Shown here one piece after another: positions 3,636 through 56,892 of a DNA stretch of 64,000 bases (its first letter is position 1; every line of letters starts with the position of its first letter). A model generated the notes under the pieces. The model did no database searches. It saw nothing but the letters and a program-made list of their open reading frames with translations, and was not told the origin of the DNA. Origin of the DNA: Octopus vulgaris (lineage: Eukaryota); the NCBI GenBank assembly GCA_951406725.2, contig OX597814.1, forward strand, positions 154,690,001-154,754,000, in the 5' to 3' direction. The position numbers and the translations under genes are program-made.

Positions 3636-3686
3636 AAATGAATAAAAGAATGGAGTCGAACGAGGATTTTAACACAATTCCTTTAA

Positions 3687-3765
3687 TTTCAACACATGTT
3701 TCGAAGACTGCATATTCTTAATTCTGAAGGAATAAGGTGCATTATGCCGTCTTCTCATCAGGAAA
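3687..3765 (-). ncRNA. Hammerhead ribozyme motif (type I, extended stem II)
   Basis: Minus strand: TTTC-CTGATGA-GAAGAC...GTCTTC-GAAA-CATGTG-TT-GAAA. Stem I 4 bp, stem II 6 bp perfect plus extension. Lies in a (TA)n-flanked element at ~3632-3935. Confidence 0.75.
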
Positions 3766-4663
3766 GTCAAGGAAAATCAATCAGCCTGAAGACGGACAAG
3801 AACTTTTCTCACACAAGAACGCGGAGTTTCTACCTTTGGCATGTAGCTTCAACCGTGTTTTCTGACGTGAATTTGCTACCCAGGTATCGGTTAACCGAAT
3901 TATCAATACTAGGATAATTTATTCACCTACTTAAATATATATATATATATATATTTAAGAAACGGTCTTCATCAATGTTTTCATCTTCTATATTCACTCG
4001 CGCAATGGGATTGAAAACACGTGGTTCTAAAGTGAGCTTCTATAACTGAACCAAATCAATGTATATATATATATATTAAAAAAGAGTGTATACTTTATTG
4101 TAATGATCGTGTTTTCCGTCGCTGGACTCATTGATCCACAGATTGGGCTTTGAATTGAACGCACATACACCCGCGTACAGACATTGTTAACTAATACGAT
4201 TCGCCTGCTATGGCCACCGGAACTGCTAGATCCCAAGATTTCCCCGTACTGCGTCTCTTCAGTGACAGTATCACTCTTGCAAAACTTTCTTTTATAAAAC
4301 TCTCCATTGGTTCTTATATGAAAATATATGTTGTTATATTTTGAGAATACATTCGTACAAATACACAAACGCATAAACATACATATACATTCAACCATGT
4401 TTATATTCATGCATATAAATATATAATATATATGTATGTGTGTCTCTGCGTGTATGTATGTATATTTGTATGTACTTATATATGCTTGTATGTATGTATG
4501 TATGTATGTATGTATGTATGTATGTATGTATGTATGTATGTATGTATGTATGTATGTATGTCTGTATGTATATAGTGTGTCTGAGAGGTGGGAAAGAGAA
4601 AAAAAGACAGTGACACAGAGATTGATGGGTAGACATATATCACTATATGCATTGTTATATACG

Positions 4664-6835: not shown

Positions 6836-7126
6836 AAAATGAAAATATCGAGAAAAAAATGTTTGGAAATATCAGGATCTAACCAAAAAACTGAAGATAC
6901 TGTGCAAGACTAAGACAACAATTATTCCTGTGGTAATTGGTGCATCTGGCACAATACCCAAAATGCTACCTAAAAGACTGAAAGAAGAGATTGGAATTGA
7001 AACTGGTATTGTCGACTTTCAGGGAAGTAAAATCTGCAAGAATCCTAAAAAAGAATATCGAGATTTTAAGATTTGTCACGAAACCTCATGATAAAATTCC
7101 TGCTAATTAAAGTAGCATGTACTAAC

Positions 7127-7127
<1 letters not shown>
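6836..7127 (+). mobile_element. Decayed 3' end of a Dong/R4-like LINE
   Basis: Translates to KYQDL...KTTIIPVVIGASGTIPK (REL endonuclease C-terminus) and ends at (TAA)n. Confidence 0.6.
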
Positions 7128-7200
<73 letters not shown>

Positions 7201-7203
<3 letters not shown>

Positions 7204-8668
7204 CAAAGCCAAACTTACAAATACTTAGGAATCCATGAACTAGATAAGACACAACACACACAAATGAAAGAGAAAATAAAAAAAGAATATTATAGACGAG
7301 TTAGATCAATACTAAAAACAGAGCTCAATGCTAAAAACAAGATAATATGTATCAACACTTTAGCTGTCCCAGTTATAAGTTACAGCTACAATATCCTTAA
7401 CTGGACACGAAATGAACTGTCCAAAATAGATAGGAAAACAAGAAAAATACTGACAGGATCTAGGATGCATCACCCAAAATCTGACATAGAAAGACTATAT
7501 ATACAACGTATAGAAGGTGGTAGAGGCCTTATACAGCTGGAAAACTACTATAAAATAACCACCATAGGACTGCAAAATACCTACTTCAGAAGGAAGGAAA
7601 ACTGATCCAGATAGTAGCAAAACACGAGCAAAACAAAAAAGTGTTCTCAGTATTTAAGGAAGCTGACAAATACAAACAAGAAATCATACCACCTAATAAA
7701 CACAAAGAAGAAGAAAAAGATGATGAAGAAACAACAAAAGCTATAAAACAAATGAAATCCAAACTAATAATACAACAGCAACGAGCCATGATAAAACGAT
7801 GGCAAGAAAAGCCCCTTCATGGTAAATACTGCACTAAACTAAACGCAAAAGAAATAGACAAAGAAAAAATCCCAGCAATGGTTGAGAAGCTCAGGACTCA
7901 AAGCAGAAACAGAGGGATTTTTAATTGCAGCACAAGACCAAAGCCTCCCCACCAGAAATTACCAAAAACATGTAATGAAAAGAAATATTACAAGTAACTG
8001 CAGAATATGTGGAGATGGACAAGAAACAATAAATCATATTATCTCTAGCTGCCCAGTCCTGGCTAAGAAGGAATATATTCACAGACATGACAGAGTTGGA
8101 ACCTACATACATTGGAAGCTATGCCAACATTATGGAATAACAACAGAAAAAAGATGGTATAGGCACACACCAGAAAAGGTCACAGAAAACGAGAAAGCAA
8201 CCATACTCTGGGATATGCCGATACACACAGATAGAGAAATTAAGGCCAACAGACCAGATATAGTTGTCAGAGATCATGAAGAAAAAAAAAATGCTTTCTA
8301 ATTGATGTATCAATACCGGCAGATGACAACGTGTCTCTAAAAGAAATGGAGAAACTCTCAAAATACAAAGACCTGGAAATAGAGATAACTAGAATGTGGA
8401 ACCTGAAAACAGAAACAATTCCTATCATAGTAGGTGCATTAGACATGATAAAAAAAATATTCAGACAAATACATAACAAAAACACCAGGACTTACAAACA
8501 CATATAACATACAGAAAATTGCACTACTAGGCACTGCACACATCCTAGCAGAACACTTTCCATACAATAACCATCAGAGCATCACAACAAATCACAGCAC
8601 ATACCCAAGGCACACAGAGCTGCGCTCGGTAGTGAAGTGAAAGCACGCTATAAAAATTAAACTACTGA
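7201..8668 (+). mobile_element. 5'-truncated, frameshifted Dong/R4-clade non-LTR retrotransposon (RT C-terminus, CCHC knuckle, REL endonuclease)
   Basis: YKYLG, HPKSDIERLYIQRIEGGRGL, IAAQDQSL, CRICGDGQETINHIISSC, RHD, PDIVV, LIDVSIP, EKLSKY. Flanked by (TAA)n on both sides. Confidence 0.9.
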
Positions 8669-8728: not shown

Positions 8729-8790
<62 letters not shown>

Positions 8791-8800
8791 AATAATAATG

Positions 8801-8861
<61 letters not shown>

Positions 8862-8884
8862 CAACAACAACAACAACAACTACA

Positions 8885-9295
8885 ACTGAGCAAATATAAA
8901 GATCTTGAAATAGAAATTAGCAAAATGTGGAACCTGAAGACTAAAACATTGCCTGTTGTCATAGGTGCCCTGGGAATGATAGCAAAAGGGGCTGATTGCT
9001 ACCTAGCTCAGATACCAGGAAACCTCAAAATGGTAGAAATTCAAAAGATAGTGCTCATGGGAACTGCTCATATCCTACGCAAGATACTTTCTATGTAATC
9101 TCATGTTTTAGAATAAACATAATTTTCTTATGGTTTCTTAAACATTCTCTAGAACAGCACTATGTACAAAACCAAATATATGGCACCCTAGGCATAACAC
9201 CAACATGAACCTCTAACATGTCTCTTGAGGTCTCTGGGTGAGACTTGGAGCCAACTTGTACAAAAGTAAAGCAAAAGTCAAATATAAAATAATAA
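8885..9295 (+). mobile_element. 3' fragment of a second Dong/R4-like LINE subfamily
   Basis: LSKYKDLEIEISKMWNLKTKTLPVVIGALGMI...QKIVLMGTAHILRKILS*. Ends at AATAAT. Confidence 0.85.
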
Positions 9296-9429
9296 TAATG
9301 ATGGTGATGATGATGATGATGATGGTAATGATGATGATGGTGATGGTGGTGATGCTGATGATGACGATGATGGTGGACTCTCTCGTCGAAGACGACGTAG
9401 AAGTGTTCAGTTTTTGCCGAAATATCTTT

Positions 9430-9845
9430 TATCTTTTCTTTTATCTTTTACTTGTTTCAGTCATTTGACTGCGGCCATGCTGGAGCACCGCCTTTAGTCG
9501 AGCAAATCGACCCCGGGACTTATTCTTTGTAAGCCCAGTACTTATTCTATCGGTCTCTTTTGCCGAACCGCTAAGTGACGGGGACGTAAACACACCAGCA
9601 TCGGTTGTCAAGCAATGCTAGGGGGACAAACACACAAACACACACACATACACACACACACATATATATATACATATATACGACAGGCTTCTTTCAGTTT
9701 CCGTCTACCAAATCCACTCACAAGGCATTGGTCGGCCCGGGGCTATAGCAGAAGACACTTGCCCAAGATGCCACGCAGTGGGACTGAACCCGGAAGCATG
9801 TGGTTGGTTAGCAAGCTACTTACCACACAGCCACTCCTGCGCCTA
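9430..9845 (-). mobile_element. SINE family A, full length
   Basis: A/B boxes, internal microsatellite and tail all present. Confidence 0.9.
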
Positions 9846-10067
9846 TATCTGCACAATTGATTTGTATAGAGATCAAATGTGCTGTACATTGGCTCAGTCT
9901 GTCCGTCAGACTGACGTTGCCGGAACAGGTGCACTGTGTACCACACGTCAGGCGTCAAGATGGTCGCTGAGCAACATGCGATGAAGTGTTGTGCCCAAGA
10001 ACATAACTCACCAGTCTAGGAATTGAACCCACATTGTCGCAACTGTGAGTGTGACATCCTAAACACT

Positions 10068-12972: not shown

Positions 12973-13271
12973 TTAAAGGTTAAAAAATATATATTTGCGT
13001 CAATATGTCTGAAGAATATTAAAAAATTTTTTTCCTTACAATGACATAGTTTAGAAGAAAGACCGGCTTCGCGTTTAGCTTTTCAAATTTCTTACGACGT
13101 TATGTTTATGTTGAATAGATAACTCTATTCAACATAAACATAACGTCGTAAGAAATTTGAAAAGGTAAACGCGAAACCGGTCTTTCTTCTAAATTATGTC
13201 ATTGTAAGGAAAAAAATTTTTTTAATATTCTTCAGACATATTGACGCAAATATATATTTTTTAACCTTTAA
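12973..13271. repeat. Near-perfect ~300-bp palindrome with a 4-nt loop (TAAC, 13120-13123)
   Basis: Arms are reverse complements apart from about 3 substitutions and one homopolymer indel. Confidence 0.95.
13150..13188 (+). ncRNA. Minimal hammerhead motif, U3-A8 variant (mirror copy at ~13054-13092, minus strand)
   Basis: AAGAAA-T-TTGAAAA-GG-TAAAC-GC-GAAA-CCGG-TC-TTTCTT. Palindromic stem III CCGG, GUC triplet. Confidence 0.55.
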
Positions 13272-13341: not shown

Positions 13342-13420
<79 letters not shown>

Positions 13421-13560
13421 TAAGGAGATGTACTTGCATAGCAAGTGATTTGATCTGAGATCGTGTGCTGGAGCGAAAACAATTGCAGCGTGGAAGGTGT
13501 TTGTAAGCCATTTAAGAAACACACAAAAGCCGTTCGATTCACTTCAACATTTAAGTTTAA

Positions 13561-13611
13561 TTTGTCAAAATATTTTCGTCGCTTTAAGACCGCGACCTGT
13601 TCACTGACAAA
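13561..13611 (-). ncRNA. Minimal hammerhead ribozyme, G3-C8 variant
   Basis: Minus strand: TTTGTCA-GTGAACA-G-GTCGC-GGTCTTAAA-GCGAC-GAAA-ATAT-TT-TGACAAA. Stem I 7 bp, stem II 5 bp, palindromic stem III. Confidence 0.75.
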
Positions 13612-13619
13612 AATCCGAA

Positions 13620-13930
13620 TTGGGCAAGTGTCTTCTACTATAGCCTTGGACTGACCAAACCTTTGTGAGAGGATTTGGTAGACGGAAACTGAAAGAAGCC
13701 CGTCATATATATGTGTATATATATATATATATATGTGTTTGTGTGTTTGTGCGTCAGTGTTTGTCCTCCCAACATCGCTTGACAACCGATGCTGGTTTGT
13801 TTACGTCCCCGTAACTTAAGAGATCGATAGAATAAGTGCTAGGCTTACAAAGAATAAGTCCTGGGGTCGATTTGCTCGACTAAAGGCGGTGCTCCAGCAT
13901 GGCCGCAATCAAATGACTAAAACAACTAAT
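13620..13930 (+). mobile_element. SINE family A, head missing at the junction with the HHR element
   Basis: Begins at TTGGGCAAGTGTCTTC. Another SINE A head follows at ~13957-14085. Confidence 0.85.
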
Positions 13931-19615: not shown

Positions 19616-19766
<151 letters not shown>

Positions 19767-27784: not shown

Positions 27785-28345
27785 ATACTCCGTCGGTTAT
27801 GTCGACGAGTTTTCCAGTTGATCCGATCAACGAAACAGCCTGTTCGTTAAAATTGTTTCTCTTAGGTGTTAATGACTGAGTACTCCTCAGACAAGCGCAC
27901 CTTTAACATATTTCTCGGGGAGTTTCAGTGCGACACATAATGTGATAAGACTGGCCCTTTGGATTACAAGTATTTAGATTACAGGTATAACTCCTTTTAG
28001 CACGCCGGACGAAATGCTCAGCGGTATTTCGTCTACCCTTACGTTCTGAGTTCAAGTTCCGCCGAGGTCGACTTTGCCTTTCATCCATTCGGAGTCGATG
28101 AATTAAGTACCAGTTACGCACTGGGGTCGATATAATCGACTTAATCCGTTTGTCTGTCCTTGTTTGTCCTCTCTGCGTTTAGCCCCTTGTGGGTAGTAAA
28201 GAAATAGGTATAATCCCTTTTTGCTAGCTGAGTGGACTGGAGCATCATGAAATAAAGTGTCTTGCTCAGAGACGCAATACGCCGCCGAGAATCGAATTCA
28301 AGATCCTTAACCAAACACCCTAGCCACTAACTCCCACGCCTCCAC
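27785..28345 (-). mobile_element. SINE family C with a nested family B copy (~27996-28207, +)
   Basis: Homologous to 38075-38360. The B insert is flanked by GGTATAA-like duplications. Confidence 0.8.
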
Positions 28346-29374: not shown

Positions 29375-29785
29375 AAGGCGGCAAGCTAGCAGAACCGTTA
29401 GCACGCCGGGCGAAATGCGTAGCCGTATTTCGTCTGCCGTTACGTTCTGAGTTCAAATTCCGCCGAGGTTGACTTTGCCTTTCATCTTTTCGGGGTCGAT
29501 AAATAAAGTAACAGTTACGCACTGGGGTCGATATAATCGACTTAATCCGTTTGTCTGTACTCTCTGTGTTTATCCCCTTGTGGGCAGTCAAGAAATACGT
29601 ATTTCGTTTGCCGTTACGTTCTGAGTTCAAATTCCGCCGAGGTCGACTTTGCCTTTCATCCTTTCAGGGTCGATAAATAAAGTAACAGTTACGCACTGGG
29701 GTCGATATAATCGACTTAATCCGTTTGTCTGTCATTTGTTTGTCCCCTCTATATTTAGCCCCTTGCGAGCAATAAAGAAACAGGT
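29375..29785 (+). mobile_element. SINE family B with tandem partial duplication
   Basis: Second unit restarts at CGTATTTCGTTTGCCGTTACG (~29597). Flanks ATTCACGGGTG / ATTCACAGGTG. Confidence 0.9.
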
Positions 29786-30496
29786 ACATTCACAGGTGTA
29801 GTAGTTTAGAAATGAGGCATTGAGCTTTGCCTTCAATCATTTTGTTTTGAGTTATGAATCTTGTTGCAAAGATTGAATCTTATTGTAAAGACTGAATTTT
29901 CGAATTTTTACCACATCCTTAATAATACCATCAATTAATGCCTCCTCGCCTACTTTTGCTATATGTATACATATGCGCAAGTGCATTGTATCTTCAAAAG
30001 AAACCAGCAAAGAAACAAACAATTTACTGTACTGTTGTTCATTGATTAGAAATTAGAAAAAACAACCTTGTAATAAGCAAGCAAAAAAAAACAAACAAAC
30101 AAAAAGCAAATACATTCTATGCATATATTTCGTCATTCTTAATTCTTTATTTCCTTAATTTTAAATTAAAGCTCTTAATTCTACCAAATATTATGGTTAT
30201 CTCCCCTGTAAAAACTGTAAGCTAGGATATTCCACGTATTTTTGCTAGAATTATTAATAGTGCTGTTGTTGTTGTTTTGCTTCAGTTCAGGTTTGATAGA
30301 AGAGATGTGTTCGAACCTAGAAAATTCCATCGTTTTTCACATCAGGGTCTATTTCCTTTAGTGGTTGTTCATTGTTTTGATGAAAATTGTTCATTGTTTG
30401 AAAAATATTGTTGAAGTTTAATAAAATCTTATATGTACTTAATACATGAAGTGTCATTGTCGGGGCCCCACGGCCTAATGAAGAGCTTTTAGCCTA

Positions 30497-32041: not shown

Positions 32042-34521
32042 TTTAAAAAAGAGAAAAGAAGAAACTACATCTCCTTGCGATGGATGCGTGAATGTAATTT
32101 GAGTCCAGGTATGGATTTTGCTATGAGTTCACAATGGGGACACTGATGATTTTGATTTTGCCTGGGATTGGGCAAATGTGTCTGCTGATTGCAGGATATA
32201 ATTATTTTATTGAAATGTTTTAACTGAGTTAGATCTTACGTAATGGATGTATTTCCTATTATATATCACATAAATCTGAAACGTTCGTATTAAATGATTT
32301 CAAAAGACCACTGTTTGGTTTAAATTCATTATTGTAACTTATGTGTGTATATGTGTATCTGTGCGAGTGCGTGAGTGAATGTGTGTGTTTTGTGTGTGTA
32401 TGTGTTTGTGTACATATGTAAGTATTGATATGCATGTATTTATGTATGTGTAGTCTTGTGGACTTCCGTATTGCAGAAAAACACCACTGTTAATTAGAAT
32501 CAGAACATAATCAATATTGGCTTGCGGAGTGAGAGGGTAAACTAACGAGTGATCCGTATATCAAACTTAGTTCTAATTTATGCTTGGGAATTGTTTAATT
32601 TCATTTACTGCACTAATAGTTTTATAAATATCTGAAAACCTTATCTCTTCTTGCCTTGTGCCAATGTAAGACATCAGATATTGAATAGTAGTTCAGGTTA
32701 AATTATCTTTTAATCCTCCAGTGTCGATAAAATAAGTAGCAATTATAATCCAGGGGAATCAAGCAGCGATAATACAGCTCCCTATCTATCTTACTTATCC
32801 CCACATAATTCTGCGAGAATCACGTAAGTATGTGATAGTAAGCATAAGTCCTATAGCAAGTTTGGATTGGAAAGGATTTATAACTTAAATAAGTTTGTTA
32901 GTTATTTTGAAATTTAATTACTGAAGCGGGCACCAATAGTCTGTAGTAAATTATATCATTAAACATAGTCATCATCGTATTTTATTGAGTAGAAAAGCAT
33001 CTGGGATTTGTACAATAACAACATTTTCGGGGACTGACTAGGAAATGTGTTTGAATGTGTCTGTTTGTGTGTATGTATGTGTGTGTGAGTGAGTGTGCGT
33101 GTATGTGTTTAATTTTCATAAGTATATATTTAAATTATAATCATATATATTATTTGAATTCTTCCTATAATGAAGGACCTGGTTTCTAACAAAGAAACGA
33201 AGTCCTTTCTCTTGGAGTTTGGTTAACAAACAACAATATTTACTTATGCTGAACTTTTAAAATGTCATGCACACTTTTATGCGCTTACGTGTAACGTATC
33301 AGTTCTTTGGTCGCTTTCTTTGGCTAAATAATCAGAACACAAAAGTTTGCAGATTTCGAAGCAGTTCTCTATAAATAATTTCCTACTTGGGAATTTTGGA
33401 AGATATATTCACATCTGCAAGAGAGCTGACCACCATGACTGTATATCACTTTCCTTTTTTCTCTCAATTCTCACGTCAATTCTGGTTGTCCTGAGTGGGA
33501 GTCCTGAGTGGGAGTCCTGAGTGGAAGTCACCATTATTCCTTGTGTTGATGTGTATGATTTGTATGAATGATATGTGTGTGAATGTGAAAATATAATATA
33601 TATCTGCATGCACAAACAGATATACACATATCAGAAAAAACACCACTCTGATAAGTGCAGAAGTGTAAGTATCTCAAGCCGTATTTACGAGTGTTGGGAA
33701 GCACGAGGCTGAATTGAATGTTAAAATTGCAGCTCTAGTATTCGATCTTCAGAAGAAGAGAGGTTGGGTCTAAGCTGATTTCTTCCAGAAAGCATAAGAT
33801 GCACAAACAGACAAACCGAGAAAGAAACAAATAGCAACTGCAACAACAATATAGATAAAAGTTTTGTGACTTGAGTGATAGATTAACTGCTTAAATTTTC
33901 TGGATTTACTAATCAAGCAGCTGTGTTTTTTCATTAAACGGCGAACCGGCAGAATAGTTAACACGCTGGACTAAAATGCTTAGCACTTCTCCCGGATTTT
34001 TATTCTGAGTTCAAATTTTGCCCAGGTCAGCTTTGTCTTTCGTCCTTTCGAAGTTGATAAAAATATCAGTCAAGTAATGGAGTCGATGCAATCGACATGC
34101 CCCTACCTCTTAAAATTGCTCTATTTTGAATCCTTAAAGGACCAGCGCTCCGTTCAGGGAGGAATGTGATCTCGGTCCCATATACACCAGGGAAACCGGC
34201 CTTAAGGAGTCCTAAGGCTCGAAAAAATATCTAGAACTCTTTATTATGATGCTAAATTCACACATTGTGTGTTTCAATGTTAAGACTAACTTTTGTTTAC
34301 ATACGAATTTACTGTCAATTCTACTAAGTATAAAATACCGATTTGGTTTGAAGTAGAACATCAGCAAGTGTTGGACTGATTCAGCCTATACCAGGGGTTA
34401 TTGCCAAATTGCTTAGTAAGAACCACATATATTTTTAAATGTTTAAGAGCGGCAATATATATTTTTAAAACTTAAGAGCACTACTAACGCAGTAGCACAC
34501 AGTATTGACTTATAAAATCGT

Positions 34522-34754
34522 AAGGCAGCGAGCTGGCAGAATCGTTAGCATGCCGGGCGAAATGCGTAGCCGTATTTCGTCTGCCGTTCGTTCTGAGTTC
34601 AAATTCCGCCGAGGTTGACTTTGCCTTTCATCCTTTCGGGGTCGATAAATTAAGTACCAGTTACGCACTGGGGTCGATATAATCGACTTAATCCGTTTGT
34701 CTGTCCTTGTTTATCCCCTCTGTGTTTATCCCCTTGTGGGTAGTAAGGAAATAG
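34522..34754 (+). mobile_element. SINE family B, full length with 20-bp TSD
   Basis: GTATTGACTTATAAAATCGT at 34502-34521 and 34755-34774. Confidence 0.95.
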
Positions 34755-37110
34755 GTATTGACTTATAAAATCGTTTAATATACTCTGTAGTATATTATGG
34801 TTCCGTAACGAAATGCCTTGTCCCGACAAGTCATTAATATCTATGTACCAGCTTTCAGGAATATTTTAAAAATCACATTCGTAAATAAGAAAATATAATG
34901 CTACATAATTTTTCTTACGAAAGTATACTGAATAATACTTACTCGTTCAAAGCTTTTATTGAGTCTTAATGTTTTTCGGTTAGTACTTTAAATTCCGGCT
35001 GGTAGAATGTTAAAACCGTTTACGAATAAAATAGCACTAATATTCAATATTATCTCGAGAGTCGCACATGGTTACTTTGAGAGTAACAGTTTGGTCACCG
35101 TAGTTCTCGACAGTTGTAGTTTGCAGGATCATAATTGAGTAGAGTTACTCACAAGCATCTTGTTTAATAATAAAGGTATGTGCCTAGCTTCAGTTATCAC
35201 ATTATTAAGATTGTACTACGGCTTTATGAGAATAAAACTAATCACGCCAAAGAGAGCATTTTCAAAACTATCTCTTTTTTTTTATATCTTTGTATCCAAC
35301 TACTAAGTGAAGTACTTGTCTTTTTATTGCCTGGGGGAGGTGCATTTGCCCAATATTATCAACGATTCTGAGATTCTAAAAGCCCTCTCAACCAAATTTC
35401 AACATGACAATTCTTTGTATGATAAGTCTATGACAGGATAAAACAATAAAGTTTTAACGGTCTCAAGAGAGATTGAGAGAAGAAGAAGAGAGAGGGAGAG
35501 AGCGAACAAAAGAGGGCGATATGAGATAGAGAAATATACTCTCTGGATAGAACAATCGACTGATTTTCTTCTATTGTGGCGTGATTTTTATTTTTCGTGT
35601 GGATTATCTGCAAATTATATATATCATGTTGAATACACCGTGTAACAATAATAATTTGGTCACGTTGATTATAAGCAACGTAAGCTCGGTGTTATGCATA
35701 TTTAATGCTGGTATCTTAACATTTACATACAAAATTGGTAACTACATATTTATCATTTAATGCTTGTTGAGAACATTATATTTATTGTGTTTCGTATTTT
35801 ATCTTTTAGTCAAGAAGGAAGGCTAAACGAACGACCCTTTACAACCTCCATAATTAGTGGAAGGGCGAGAAGAACGTGTCTTCAAACCATTCGAATGCGT
35901 GCAACAGGCTGGACTCGAAACAACGCAGTTCACTGTGCTGGTGCATTTTTCTTGATAAAATACATAGCTACCCTTTTCTAGAAGACCAATCTATCACCAA
36001 GTAAATTTACCCACAAAGGGAAAGAAGTGAACTCAGCCATACACTTTAACAAATCTCTCGTCGATTTGTCTTCTATATTATTAGGTGACCAAGTAGTTAG
36101 AAATTTAGCTTTACGATCGAAAAGTAATTGGTTCAGACCACGGACCAGGTGGCGCATTGTATCCCCGAGAAAGACACTTGATTTCGCATTGTTTCAGTCT
36201 ACTAGCAGTAAATGAGAGTTAACAAGCAGCGAACTGGCCTCCCGTCCAGTGGAGAATTTATACTGTGTCTCTTATATACTACAAAAACAAGAATAAGATC
36301 CTGCCAAATGAGTCTGTAGGCTCGAGGTAAATTCCTGCAACGAAGAATTATTAGAGCCAACGGGTATTTATGCGGTGACTTGGTTTTTTTTAATATATTG
36401 CAGTTAAAGTTTCAAATTGCAGTTTCAGCTTAAAAAACGAAGGGCACGCATAATAAGTGTTCTGGTTTTATCCCATCAAAAAGAACAACACAAACAAACC
36501 ACTATCGCTGAAACACTGATAATAATTGCTTTGTTTCCATATTATAAACCATTATTAGCAGTGCTGAAAGTGGTACATCTCACTAAGGAGGCGAAATCAT
36601 TCAGAAACCGCTAAAATTGCTAGTAATTTGGTGTGTTTCAACGCAACAAAGTCTAGAGTAACAAATTTGTTTTCCGAAACAAAGTCAAGCAGCATACCAT
36701 TCAAATTTCAATGTGCAAGAACGTGTTAAAAATAAATGTACACGTCTTTATTTTGATCCTCGCAGCTTCCTGTGTTTATATGCACATACAGACGTATATG
36801 TATACTTAAACATACACATTTGCAAATATCAATTACATATATTAATATTTATATTTTTATTAGTTGCGTTTTGAATTCTAAGCGATCAGAATCAAAATGG
36901 AATTAAATTTGCATAACTCACCAAAGCTACGTGTAACAAATTCTACTTTCAAAAGTATCTAGAAGCTTATGCATGCATACATACATACATACGCACACAT
37001 GTATATACATATACATATCTATAGATGTAAATATTATGCATACATATATATATATACACACATCTATCTATGTATCTATCTATCAGCATATATATATATA
37101 TGTATAAGCA

Positions 37111-46182: not shown

Positions 46183-46758
46183 TATATGCAGAGAGCGTTT
46201 CCTCCGAGTCAAAGTAGAAAAGTGGAAACCAAGCCTTGCATCCTTTCGGGGTCGATTGAATAAGTACCAGTTACGCACTGGTGTTGATGTAATCGACTTA
46301 ATCCCCTCCCCCAAGCTGCCCTTGTGGCAAAAATTTGAAATAATAATAATAATTAGTATAAGGTGGCTGAGGGCAGCAAGTTGGCAGAATCGTTAACACG
46401 CTAGACGAAATACTTAGCGGTATTTCGCTCGTCGCTACATTCTGAGTTCAACTTTTTCTTTCATCCTTTCTGGGTCGAGAAATTAAGTATCAGTGAAATA
46501 CTGGAGTTGATGTAATCGACTAGACTCTCCCACCAAATTTCAAGCCTTGTACCTATCGTGGAAAGGATTATTATTATTATCATAATGCTTAGCGGCATTT
46601 CGCCCGTCTTTACCTTCTCAGTTGAAATTCCACCGTAGTTAACTTTGCCTTTCATCCTTTCGGGGTCGAAAATTTAAGTACGAGCTGCGTACTGGGGTCG
46701 ATCTAATCGACTGGCCCTCTCCCCTAAAATTTCAGGCCTTGTGCCTATAGTAGGAAGG

Positions 46759-46821
<63 letters not shown>

Positions 46822-47430: not shown

Positions 47431-48915
47431 CATTATTATAAGGCGGCGATATGACAGAATCATTAGCGCGCTAGACGAAATGCTTAGCGGTATTTAGCCT
47501 GCGTTCTGTCTTCAAATTCCGCCAAGGTTGATTTTGCCTTTCATCTTTTTGGGGTCGATAAAACAACTACCAGTTGAACCCTGGGGTCGATGCAATCGAC
47601 TCATCTCCTCCCCCTTGTGGCAAAATTTGAAATCAGAACACTGAGTGTCAATGTAATCGACTAGGTCTGTCTCCTTTCTCAATTTCAGGCCTTGTGTCTT
47701 TAGTACAAAGGATCATTAATGTGGTGAGTTGGCAGAATTGTTATCGCATTGGAAACATCGTTTTGCGATATTTGTTCCGGCTCTCTACGTTCTGAGTTCA
47801 AATCCTACTGAGGTCATAATTAGCTTTCATTCTTTCGAGGTCGATGAAATAAAGTACTTGATAATGATATCAACTAACTCTCTCCCATAAAATTTACTGA
47901 CCTTGTGCTTAAATTAGAAGCTGTACTTACTCTTTTTTCATTCTTCTGAGGTTTCCGCATGGGTGTTAAGAAGCTCGTCTTGAAACTACCTTGTTTTGGA
48001 TTCATTCCCACTACGCGGCGCTTAGGGCAAGTCTTCTACTATTTTTGCTGAACTGATCAATGTCTAATGAGTGAATTTGGCAAATGGAAACTGTGTAGAA
48101 GCCTATTATATCTACCCCAGTGCGTAACTGGTAATTATTTAATCGACTCCGAAAGGATGAAAGACAAAGTCGACCTCGGCGGAATTTGAACTCAGAACGT
48201 AACGGTAGACGAAATACCTATTTCTTTACTACCCACAAGGGGCTAAGCACAGAAAGGACAAACAAGGACAGACAAACGGTTTAAGTCGATTATATCGACC
48301 CCAGTGAGTAACTGGTACTTTATTTATCGACCCCGAAAGGATGAAAGGCAAAGTCGACCTCGGCGGAATTTGAACTCAGAACGTAACAGCAGACGAAATA
48401 CCACTAAGCATTTCAGCCGGCGTGCTAACGTTTCTGCCAGCTCGCATGTTTTTTGGGTTTGTTCTCCTCATTGCTTGGTAGCTACTGTGATTTATTTACA
48501 TCCCTGTAACCTAGCTGTTCGGCAAAAGCAACCGACAGAGTAAGTACCAGTCTTTAAAAATAAATACCAGAATCGATTTATTCAACTGAAACCTTCAAAG
48601 CAGTGCTGTAGCGTTGCCGCAGTACTATGACTGAAACAAGTAACAGATCAAAAATATATACTGAATACATTTAATCTACTGTGCTACTTGACAATCGTAT
48701 TATCAGCATCGATTAAGGTGACGAGCTGGCAGACTCGTTAGCAGTGCATTTCGTTTTTCTATATGTTCTGAGTTCAAAATTCCGTCGGGGTGGACTTTCT
48801 CTTTTAACTTTCGAGATCGATAAAATAGGCATTACTAGAACACTGGGGCCAATGTAATCGACTATTCTCCTTCCCCGAGCTTGTTAGCCTAGTACCAAAA
48901 TTCGAAACCATTATT
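46170..48915. mobile_element. Dense cluster of ~9 SINE B copies or fragments plus a SINE A (47955-48655) with two nested minus-strand B units
   Basis: Repeated CATCCTTTCGGGGTCGA...GTACCAG...GTAATCGACT motifs. Confidence 0.85.
46820..47367 (-). mobile_element. ~550-bp non-coding element inserted in (TAA)n
   Basis: (ATT)n on both sides. Second copy at 18193-18404. Orientation inferred from the shared end. Confidence 0.8.
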
Positions 48916-54016: not shown

Positions 54017-54087
<71 letters not shown>

Positions 54088-54125
54088 ATAATAATAATAA
54101 TAATAATAATAGTAATAATAATAGC

Positions 54126-54179
<54 letters not shown>

Positions 54180-54183
<4 letters not shown>

Positions 54184-54472
54184 GAGGTAACTAGAATGTG
54201 GAACCTGAAAACAGAAACAATTCCTATCATAGTAGGTGCATTAGGCATGATAAAAAAATATTCAGACAAATACATAACAAAAACACCAGGACTTACAAAC
54301 ACATATAACATACAGAAAATTGCACTACTAGGCACTGCACACATCCTACGCAGAACACTTTCCATACAATAACCATCAGAGCATCACAACAAATCACAGC
54401 ACATACCCAAGGCACACAGAGCTGCGCTCGGTAGTGAAGTGAAAGCACGCTATAAAAATAAAAATAAAACTA

Positions 54473-54478
<6 letters not shown>
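54180..54478 (+). mobile_element. 3' end of Dong/R4-like LINE, near-identical to 8380-8668
   Basis: IEVTRMWNLKTETIPIIVGALGMIKK...GTAHILRRTLSIQ* plus 3' UTR. (TAA)n on both sides. Confidence 0.9.
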
Positions 54479-54533
<55 letters not shown>

Positions 54534-54547
54534 TTAATAATAATAAT

Positions 54548-54895
54548 AAGTGTAAGTGCAGAGCTACCAAGGATCAACTCCTGATATGCAAAACTGTACT
54601 CAGAGATTGCAAGAGGAGTAAAAGTAAGTTAGCCATGTCATGGATCGACTATCGTAAGGCGTACGGTATGATACTACATTCTTAGATTATAGAGTGTATG
54701 AACCTTTTTGGTATTGCATCGAATGTTAAGCGATTGCTTGGAAAAAGTATGGCGAATTGGAGCTAACAGCATACGGAAGAAGTTTTGGGACAGAAGAAAT
54801 TAGGAAGGGCATCTTCCAAGGGGACTGCCTGTCTCCATTGATCTTTGTACTGTGCTTAATACCACTAGCACTGATTTTGAGCAAAGCAAAAGCTT
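54548..54895 (+). pseudogene. Reverse-transcriptase fragment of an R4/Dong-type LINE
   Basis: CRATKDQLLICKTVL...AMSWIDYRKAY...RKGIFQGDCLSPLIFVLCLIPL. Adjoins (TAA)n. Confidence 0.85.
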
Positions 54896-56450: not shown

Positions 56451-56669
56451 AAACAAGCTCCTGCTTTACAGGAAGATTTCAGGTAAAATCAGAAGAGAAT
56501 ATAAATACATACTTCGTGCACTCATACACATACAAACACCTATATGAATACAAATAATGAATATTGAACAACTCGTGTCCAAATATAGATAAAAAGGAAA
56601 GAATCTTTTGAGATGAGGATAATATCTAAAGTGTTAAAAAATCAGACTGTGTGATATTGGTAGCACCAA

Positions 56670-56892
56670 TATTTATTTCTTTATTGCTCACTCACGGGGG
56701 TCTAAACATAGAAAGGATAAATAAGGACAGACCAAGGGATTAAGTCGATTGCATCGACCCCAGTGCGTAACTAGTGCTTATTTAATCAACACCAAAAAGA
56801 TGAAAGGCAAAGTCGACCTCGGTGGAATTTGAACTCAGAACGTAATGGCACACGAAATACCGCTAGGCAGTTCGCCAGCTCGCCACCCTTAA
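56670..56892 (-). mobile_element. SINE family B with AGCACCAAT TSD
   Basis: AGCACCAAT at ~56662 and ~56894. Confidence 0.85.

Follow-up and report, generated by a model that had tools for sequence, protein, structure and literature searches.

A candidate type I hammerhead with a reversed G3-C8 core pair in a dispersed ~200-bp repeat of Octopus vulgaris

In the stretch of Octopus vulgaris DNA that was analysed here (64,000 nt, referred to as the window), the minus strand from 13611 to 13561 carries a complete hammerhead layout of 51 bases in which the core letters at positions 3 and 8 are swapped, being G3-C8 and not C3-G8. The reading that we favour, with moderate confidence, is that this is a type I minimal hammerhead layout with a reversed G3-C8 pair, that the dispersed ~200-bp repeat around it is likely a non-autonomous (TA)n-targeting Penelope derivative, and that cutting after U17 would be weak and would likely need a dimer or the help of a protein. 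Judged by its letters, the motif would work like a Penelope-type minimal hammerhead that breaks the C3/G8 consensus yet keeps the pair, and it represents neither a new ribozyme class nor new chemistry.

Results

Anatomy of the hammerhead

Stem I of the motif is formed on the minus strand by UUUGUCA (13605-13611) as its 5' strand and UGACAAA (13561-13567) as its 3' strand, the two 7-nt arms being 100% complementary. The core, G3-U4-G5-A6-A7-C8-A9, occupies 13598-13604, with G3 at 13604, C8 at 13599, and A9 at 13598, and it is followed at 13597 by an extra unpaired G that stands between A9 and G10.1. Stem II (13578-13596) has 5 bp, GUCGC at 13596-13592 pairing with GCGAC at 13582-13578, and it is closed by a G10.1-C11.1 pair and capped by a 9-nt loop at 13591-13583. 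After it come G12-A13-A14 (13577-13575) and the palindromic stem III sequence AAUAUU (13574-13569, with A15.1 at 13574 and U16.1 at 13569), and then U17 at 13568, which ends a UUU triplet and precedes the predicted scissile bond 13568/13567. As in a type I hammerhead, both stem I and stem II are present and the three-way junction opens at stem I. The position map shows that U4, G5, A6, A9, G12, A13, A14, the A15.1-U16.1 pair, and H17 are all as in the hammerhead consensus, and that the consensus C3 and G8 are absent, G3 and C8 standing in their place, so that a Watson-Crick 3-8 pair is retained in reversed orientation. The marks of Penelope-element minimal hammerheads are also present, namely the extra nucleotide after A9, G10.1-C11.1, and a short palindromic stem III.

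The position map thus agrees with the original prediction of a minus-strand hammerhead at 13561-13611 with a 7-bp stem I, a 5-bp stem II, and a UUU triplet. The reversed 3-8 pair that it had claimed was found both in this map and in a descriptor scan, and by hammerhead numbering the cut was correctly placed between 13568 and 13567. Its description of the core as structurally clean does not hold because the unpaired G at 13597, which was overlooked, makes the core spacing non-canonical. It had also described GAAA and a palindromic stem III of AUAU; the palindrome is there, but its extent was misjudged, since it is the 6-nt AAUAUU and consists of A and U throughout. A predicted G3·U17 pair and the Penelope-like context had been overlooked as well.

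Chance, folding, and detection

The descriptor scan matched the G3-C8 motif once in the whole window, and in 100 doublet-block shuffles, with both strands of the window scanned, no Watson-Crick 3-8 motif of equal stem quality was found. When folded in the context of the whole element, stem I was predicted with pair probabilities of 0.68-1.0 and stem II with 0.99; the fold has a z of -2.35, and 5/200 shuffles were equally good. G3·U17 is predicted to lengthen stem I (P=0.67). In the monomer A15.1-U16.1 has P=0.0, and a stem III duplex is predicted at -0.2 kcal/mol. The double-hammerhead fold, at -25.4 kcal/mol, is about the same as two monomers (-24.8), and a competing dimer is stronger, at -30.6 kcal/mol.

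Rfam at gathering score gave no match in the window, and hammerhead models are absent from the 14 Rfam matches at E<=10 around 13561-13611, which bears out the earlier statement that the motif is invisible to canonical searches. This is a weak test, since a canonical hammerhead elsewhere in the window likewise falls below gathering score. This second hammerhead, a C3-G8 type I motif on the minus strand found by the descriptor scan, has its core starting at 3761 and lies in a ~290-bp segment (3642-3933) with (TA)n on both sides; its stem II of 6 bp contains a long insertion, its stem III is ACAUGUGU, it has U17 and a 4-bp stem I, and it is single copy in the window. It shows that hammerhead elements at (TA)n exist in this genome.

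The element that carries the motif

The motif lies in a copy (13424-13617, minus strand) of a dispersed high-copy ~200-bp repeat that was delimited by contig depth and by clusters of loose contig ends. A run search with 13420-13700, a query which took in about 80 bases of the adjoining SINE, listed 24 runs, of which 20 contain the stretch or part of it (11 studies, four organism labels, and two metagenomes). The contigs of four of the 24 runs were aligned onto 13419-13632, and all four runs, with four organism labels, contributed: 21,115 contigs in X1 (counted from 76% of the run), 9,694 in X2, 6,160 in X9, and 538 in X12. Contig depth climbs at 13419-13426 and ends by 13617-13626, being 0 past 13626, and the loose ends cluster at 13420-13425 and 13612-13617, where about 10-15 letters are common before the ends diverge (agreement about 0.5). 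These edges fit the ~200-bp element (13420-13620) to which the motif had been assigned. Fifteen of the 58 joints were shown, all of them at the depth of single-locus contigs; four join opposite strands and one goes back, each in 1-2 contigs. Given joints at single-locus depth together with sharp shared ends, we conclude that this is a dispersed ~200-bp family and not a tandem satellite. The safe reading of its copy number is thousands; summed depth divided by single-locus depth would give 10^4-10^5, a figure that is not valid as a true copy number. The X1 joints 13465-13616, 13552-13618, 13580-13612, and 13584-13479 place parts of the element in rare inverted or go-back order; they have single-locus depth, and some of them recur in other runs. 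The window itself holds this one copy, no further ones being found by blastn and nhmmer; an exact 26-base probe had 0 matches in metagenome, viral, and prokaryote collections, and plasmids and phages searched by blastn gave no match.

Both neighbours of the element are as had been proposed, (TA)n on one side and a headless SINE on the other. By repeat coordinates (TA)37 at 13344-13417 abuts the 3' end of the element and is its likely insertion target; the cut site is 143 nt from that end (13424). In this copy (TA)37 adjoins, and for the other copies what is seen is an AT-rich flank consensus. On the opposite side, at 13619-13929 on the plus strand, blastn and nhmmer identified a 5'-truncated copy of an abundant SINE-like repeat which is outside the hammerhead family; it begins at 13619/13620 and is without the first ~94 bases of a fuller copy at 9429-9848. 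About 10 bases that other copies of the element share past 13617 are replaced here by the SINE. At 13612-13625, GCATCT ends both the shared end of the family and the SINE sequence just before the truncation point, and the junction letters differ in the window; the SINE and the element were possibly joined by microhomology, though the join is not clean. Immediately left of (TA)37, at 12973-13271, lies an almost perfect palindrome of ~300 bp around a 4-nt centre, with arms of 99 nt (97% complementary) and of 61 nt (98% complementary), which is possibly a foldback or MITE-like element.

The element is crossed by two open frames, one of 65 codons (13420-13617, minus strand) and one of 66 codons (13454-13654, plus strand), for which no Pfam or protein relatives were found. 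The 65-codon frame was rejected as a gene, with a stop-creating change at 13503 in 52-61% of the family depth, and a phmmer match (P0002, E=1.6e-4) was dropped, being a singleton, internally repeated protein that aligned at residues 16-60, beyond the core codons. Terminal inverted repeats of the kind that define a TIR DNA transposon or MITE are absent from the window copy, which is without about 10 bases of the family end. The tandem array of a non-LTR retrozyme was not seen either, with one copy in the window and end-to-start joints at single-locus depth only, and retrozyme identity was rejected since head-to-tail tandem arrays were absent among the joints shown. Neither in the window nor among these joints was a tandem array or an autonomous element found.

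The host is an AT-rich, microsatellite-rich eukaryote, and the repeats have a cephalopod-like look. The window also holds a frameshifted non-LTR retrotransposon fragment at 7126-8400 (zf-RVT match, E=1.3e-6) with related pieces near 8790-9094, 19616-19765, and 54080-54549; of four Atlas clusters shown for a retroelement fragment of the window, three were commonest in Mollusca, with few labelled members. There is also a second abundant repeat family of ~185-215 bp, partly in head-to-tail pairs (27997-28211, 29375-29786, 34521-34760, 46233-46778, 47439-47857, 48099-48445, and 56667-56892), in which the descriptor scan found no hammerhead.

With the element so delimited, the nested stems could be read in another way. 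Helitrons have a 5' TC, a CTRR 3' end, and a subterminal hairpin close to it, and on the plus strand of this element a similar hairpin does fold, about 15-20 nt before the shared family end, while the loose-end consensus is often CT followed by AA or GA. The stems would then form a subterminal hairpin in the DNA of a non-autonomous element, Helitron-like or of another DNA type, and the likeness to a hammerhead would be a coincidence. We think this highly improbable, since every canonical core letter, together with a Watson-Crick 3-8 pair, would then stand at the right spacing by chance, a combination that the 100 shuffles never produced, and since the loose-end consensus at the other end, which is of low agreement, has no 5' TC and this copy has no terminal inverted repeats.

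Is the reversed pair common to the family?

The variant table spans 13449-13588 only, and positions 3-9 and both 5' stem strands fall outside it. The first and last variant places that it lists (13449 and 13588) are set 30-33 letters in from the aligned ends. Places within ~30 letters of these ends are unlisted, so that the blank rows at 13589-13617 reflect this edge effect rather than conservation. Among the 140 readable places 33 are variable, and in all four runs there is only one (13473) at which the window copy has an allele below 10% of the depth. The rough chance of two private C<->G changes at exactly positions 3 and 8 is 6e-6, or 1e-4 with a looser rate. As the copy is private at 1/140 sites, two private changes at 3 and 8 are unlikely and G3-C8 is probably common to a subfamily or to the whole family. 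It could still be argued that G3-C8 is peculiar to this or to a few copies, that the consensus is canonical or G3-G8, and that this copy has decayed: the table stops short of 3 and 8, the sole printed core of another copy, in a divergent contig, keeps G3 and has G8 instead of C8, and the copy departs from the family near both of its ends (13613 and 13419-13423). We consider this very unlikely in view of the low private-allele rate, and the recurrence of G3 in that independent contig also speaks against it.

From G12 into stem I (13566-13577) there is no variant at 4% or more in any of the four runs, an invariance that is not significant since invariant runs of 12-13 nt also occur outside the motif. 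The common variants in the readable half of the motif either fall at 13586, in loop II, or leave a wobble pair intact, as at 13565 in the 3' strand of stem I, where 10-20% of depth has a G that is wobble-compatible; altogether 4/5 listed stem variants preserve a wobble pair, and two-sided changes are not scorable in the readable range. A search for other copies by way of predicted proteins gave no homologues. A degenerate pattern of stem II and core matched at least 123 loci (at least 119 metagenome and 4 viral, median GC 0.64); among those listed the four 3/8 combinations were about even (37, 29, 29, and 28) and none resembles the element, and these matches were therefore put down to chance.

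Would the motif cut?

The tertiary C3-G8 pair of the hammerhead was proven by a laboratory swap to G3-C8. In the Penelope-element hammerhead PAc of Anolis, C3G/G8C partly restores cleavage (PMC11167929), and in a full double-mutant scan G3-C8 was the only double change within the CUGA turn that rescued cleavage (PMC9901934); the reversed 3-8 pair is also treated in a review (PMC8495972). By analogy with these cases it is plausible that the reversed pair is chemically workable. The models point to an activity that is probably low, on account of the all-A/U stem III, G3·U17, the UUU triplet, U16.2, and the competing dimer. The predicted G3·U17 resembles an inhibitory pair, C3-G17, that PMC3884650 discusses. 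No cluster at the cut site is found among the listed loose ends.

These same features have to be weighed for a motif that no longer cuts at all. A canonical Penelope-element ancestor may have given rise to a master copy which drifted by way of G3-G8 to G3-C8 with no need to cut, the family having spread anyway. In vitro the Anolis element can insert without cleavage by its hammerhead, which is assisted by protein, and its cut site was not the end of any RNA-seq read (PMC11167929); in the octopus family one contig has the unpaired G3-G8 state, dispersed copies make dimer partners rare, and the predicted G3·U17 pair, the UUU triplet, and the A/U stem III all fit a dead relic. What makes this account somewhat unlikely is that drift would have had to bring about two transversions by which just the 3-8 pair is restored, with all other positions of the core staying canonical. 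A weak hint in the same direction is that G12 lies in a CpG at which C>T is unlisted at 4% in any run, whereas the other 9 of the 10 CpG-strand positions reach at least 5% in X1.

Transcription and a hint of editing

In X12, a run which the tool guessed to be RNA, T>C changes on the plus strand, which are A>G when read on the ribozyme strand, were found at seven places at 4.1-24.1%, and at the same places they were at most 0.5% in X1, X2, and X9. A>G on the plus strand was found at only one place in X12 (7:1 strand bias, p=0.07). The T>C places lie within 13500-13579, of which 13579 is in stem II; 13544 was excluded from the count because X1 varies there too. ADAR prefers a 5' U neighbour, and the strongest of the A>G sites in X12 has one. 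X12 carries a different organism label and was compared with no matching DNA, and five other differences enriched in it are not of the editing type, so that we take these changes as a lead, and not as proof, that the ribozyme strand is transcribed and A-to-I edited. A far-reaching version of the favoured reading would be a lineage of short Penelope-derived elements, numbering from thousands up to tens of thousands of copies, present in four or more related animals, with a fixed, active G3-C8 hammerhead, transcribed mainly from the ribozyme strand, A-to-I edited, and held off by G3·U17 until a dimer partner or a protein of the element opens it. Taken as a whole this is tentative, and we rate it as rather unlikely.

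Discussion

How a G3-C8 hammerhead could work and spread

In the reading that we prefer, G3-C8 would be carried by a large subfamily or by the whole family and would retain the tertiary Watson-Crick pair by which the 2'-OH of nucleotide 8 is positioned, and catalysis would therefore survive at a reduced rate. Stem III would form only as a 6-bp duplex between two AAUAUU copies. The copies may be inserted by an autonomous partner, through its reverse transcriptase and its GIY-YIG endonuclease, mostly from uncut RNA, which would make the lone copy seen here probably a passive insertion. The layout, the position near the 3' end, and the (TA)n fit the plan of the Hydra clade of Penelope-like elements, and this is the reason why we consider the repeat a likely non-autonomous derivative that depends for its movement on an RT-GIY-YIG partner; its putative link to an autonomous Penelope-like element is drawn from the architecture.

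In the literature that was covered, which leaves out most subscription papers and thus makes a prior report possible, no natural G3-C8 hammerhead was found and the matches were laboratory mutants. If an active G3-C8 motif were lineage-wide, it would be the first G3-C8 ribozyme family to be found naturally in animals, one hidden from searches based on CUGANGA, and a high-copy animal family of this kind would complete the natural series beside U3-A8. It would also provide thousands of copies for testing whether Penelope-type hammerheads are selected to cut, a question that is open because cleavage is weak and dispensable for insertion in vitro. Such a family would suggest that Penelope families described as 'hammerhead-less' need to be re-screened with swapped cores. 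The present case also shows that genomic hammerheads are undercounted by Rfam and CUGANGA descriptors.

Comparison with known systems

The engineered C3G/G8C hammerheads (PMC11167929 and PMC9901934) are laboratory mutants, whereas the swap described here is genomic and known from sequence alone. U3-A8 is a natural 3-8 covariation (PMC3088659), and it is the one described in the core of Penelope-element minimal hammerheads, with about 1,300 Schistosoma matches, G3-C8 going unmentioned in the portion of that report that was covered (PMC4209133). Hammerheads are likewise unmentioned in the supplement of the Octopus vulgaris repeat annotation (PMC13282606), and 26-base and 9-base probes were absent from the PMC8557442 supplement, in which line breaks could mask a match.

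Metazoan non-LTR retrozymes are non-coding, low-GC repeats of 170-400 nt with a type I hammerhead that occur head-to-tail in tandem and give rise to RNA circles (Cervera and de la Pena 2020, PMC7229834). The octopus element is like them in being a short non-coding repeat with a type I hammerhead and unlike them in that the joints listed for it have single-locus depth and its ends mostly continue into unrelated flanks. The inverted and go-back joints, seen among the 15 of 58 shown, recall the tandem and inverted complex insertions described for Penelope-like elements (PMC8557442). The minimal hammerheads of Penelope elements are found as thousands of dispersed single motifs, with no activity as monomers and low activity as dimers (Cervera and de la Pena 2014, PMC4209133), and those of metazoans share with the octopus motif the extra nucleotide between 9 and 10.1, G10.1-C11.1, and a palindromic 15.2-16.2 region.

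Elements of the Hydra clade nearly all target (TA)n, and the distance of their hammerhead to the 3' end is about 100-210 nt (Craig et al. 2021, PMC8557442, File S2). The octopus element is like them in its type I motif with a short near-palindromic stem III, in the position of the hammerhead near the 3' end, and in its likely (TA)n target, and it differs from them in that its ~200 bp are without a reverse-transcriptase ORF. In File S2 all 34/34 rows, and with them 26/26 Hydra-clade rows, are C3-G8, and 26/26 Hydra-clade rows have G16.2, unlike the U16.2 of this motif. U17 is found in 10/26 Hydra-clade rows, as it is here; since those rows are canonical, the idea that U17 is a special adaptation to G3 was rejected. 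The hammerhead of Hydra-1_oBim (PMC8557442) has the same 8-nt core with N7 as A, the same extra G, and the same U17, and the octopus motif differs from this core at positions 3 and 8.
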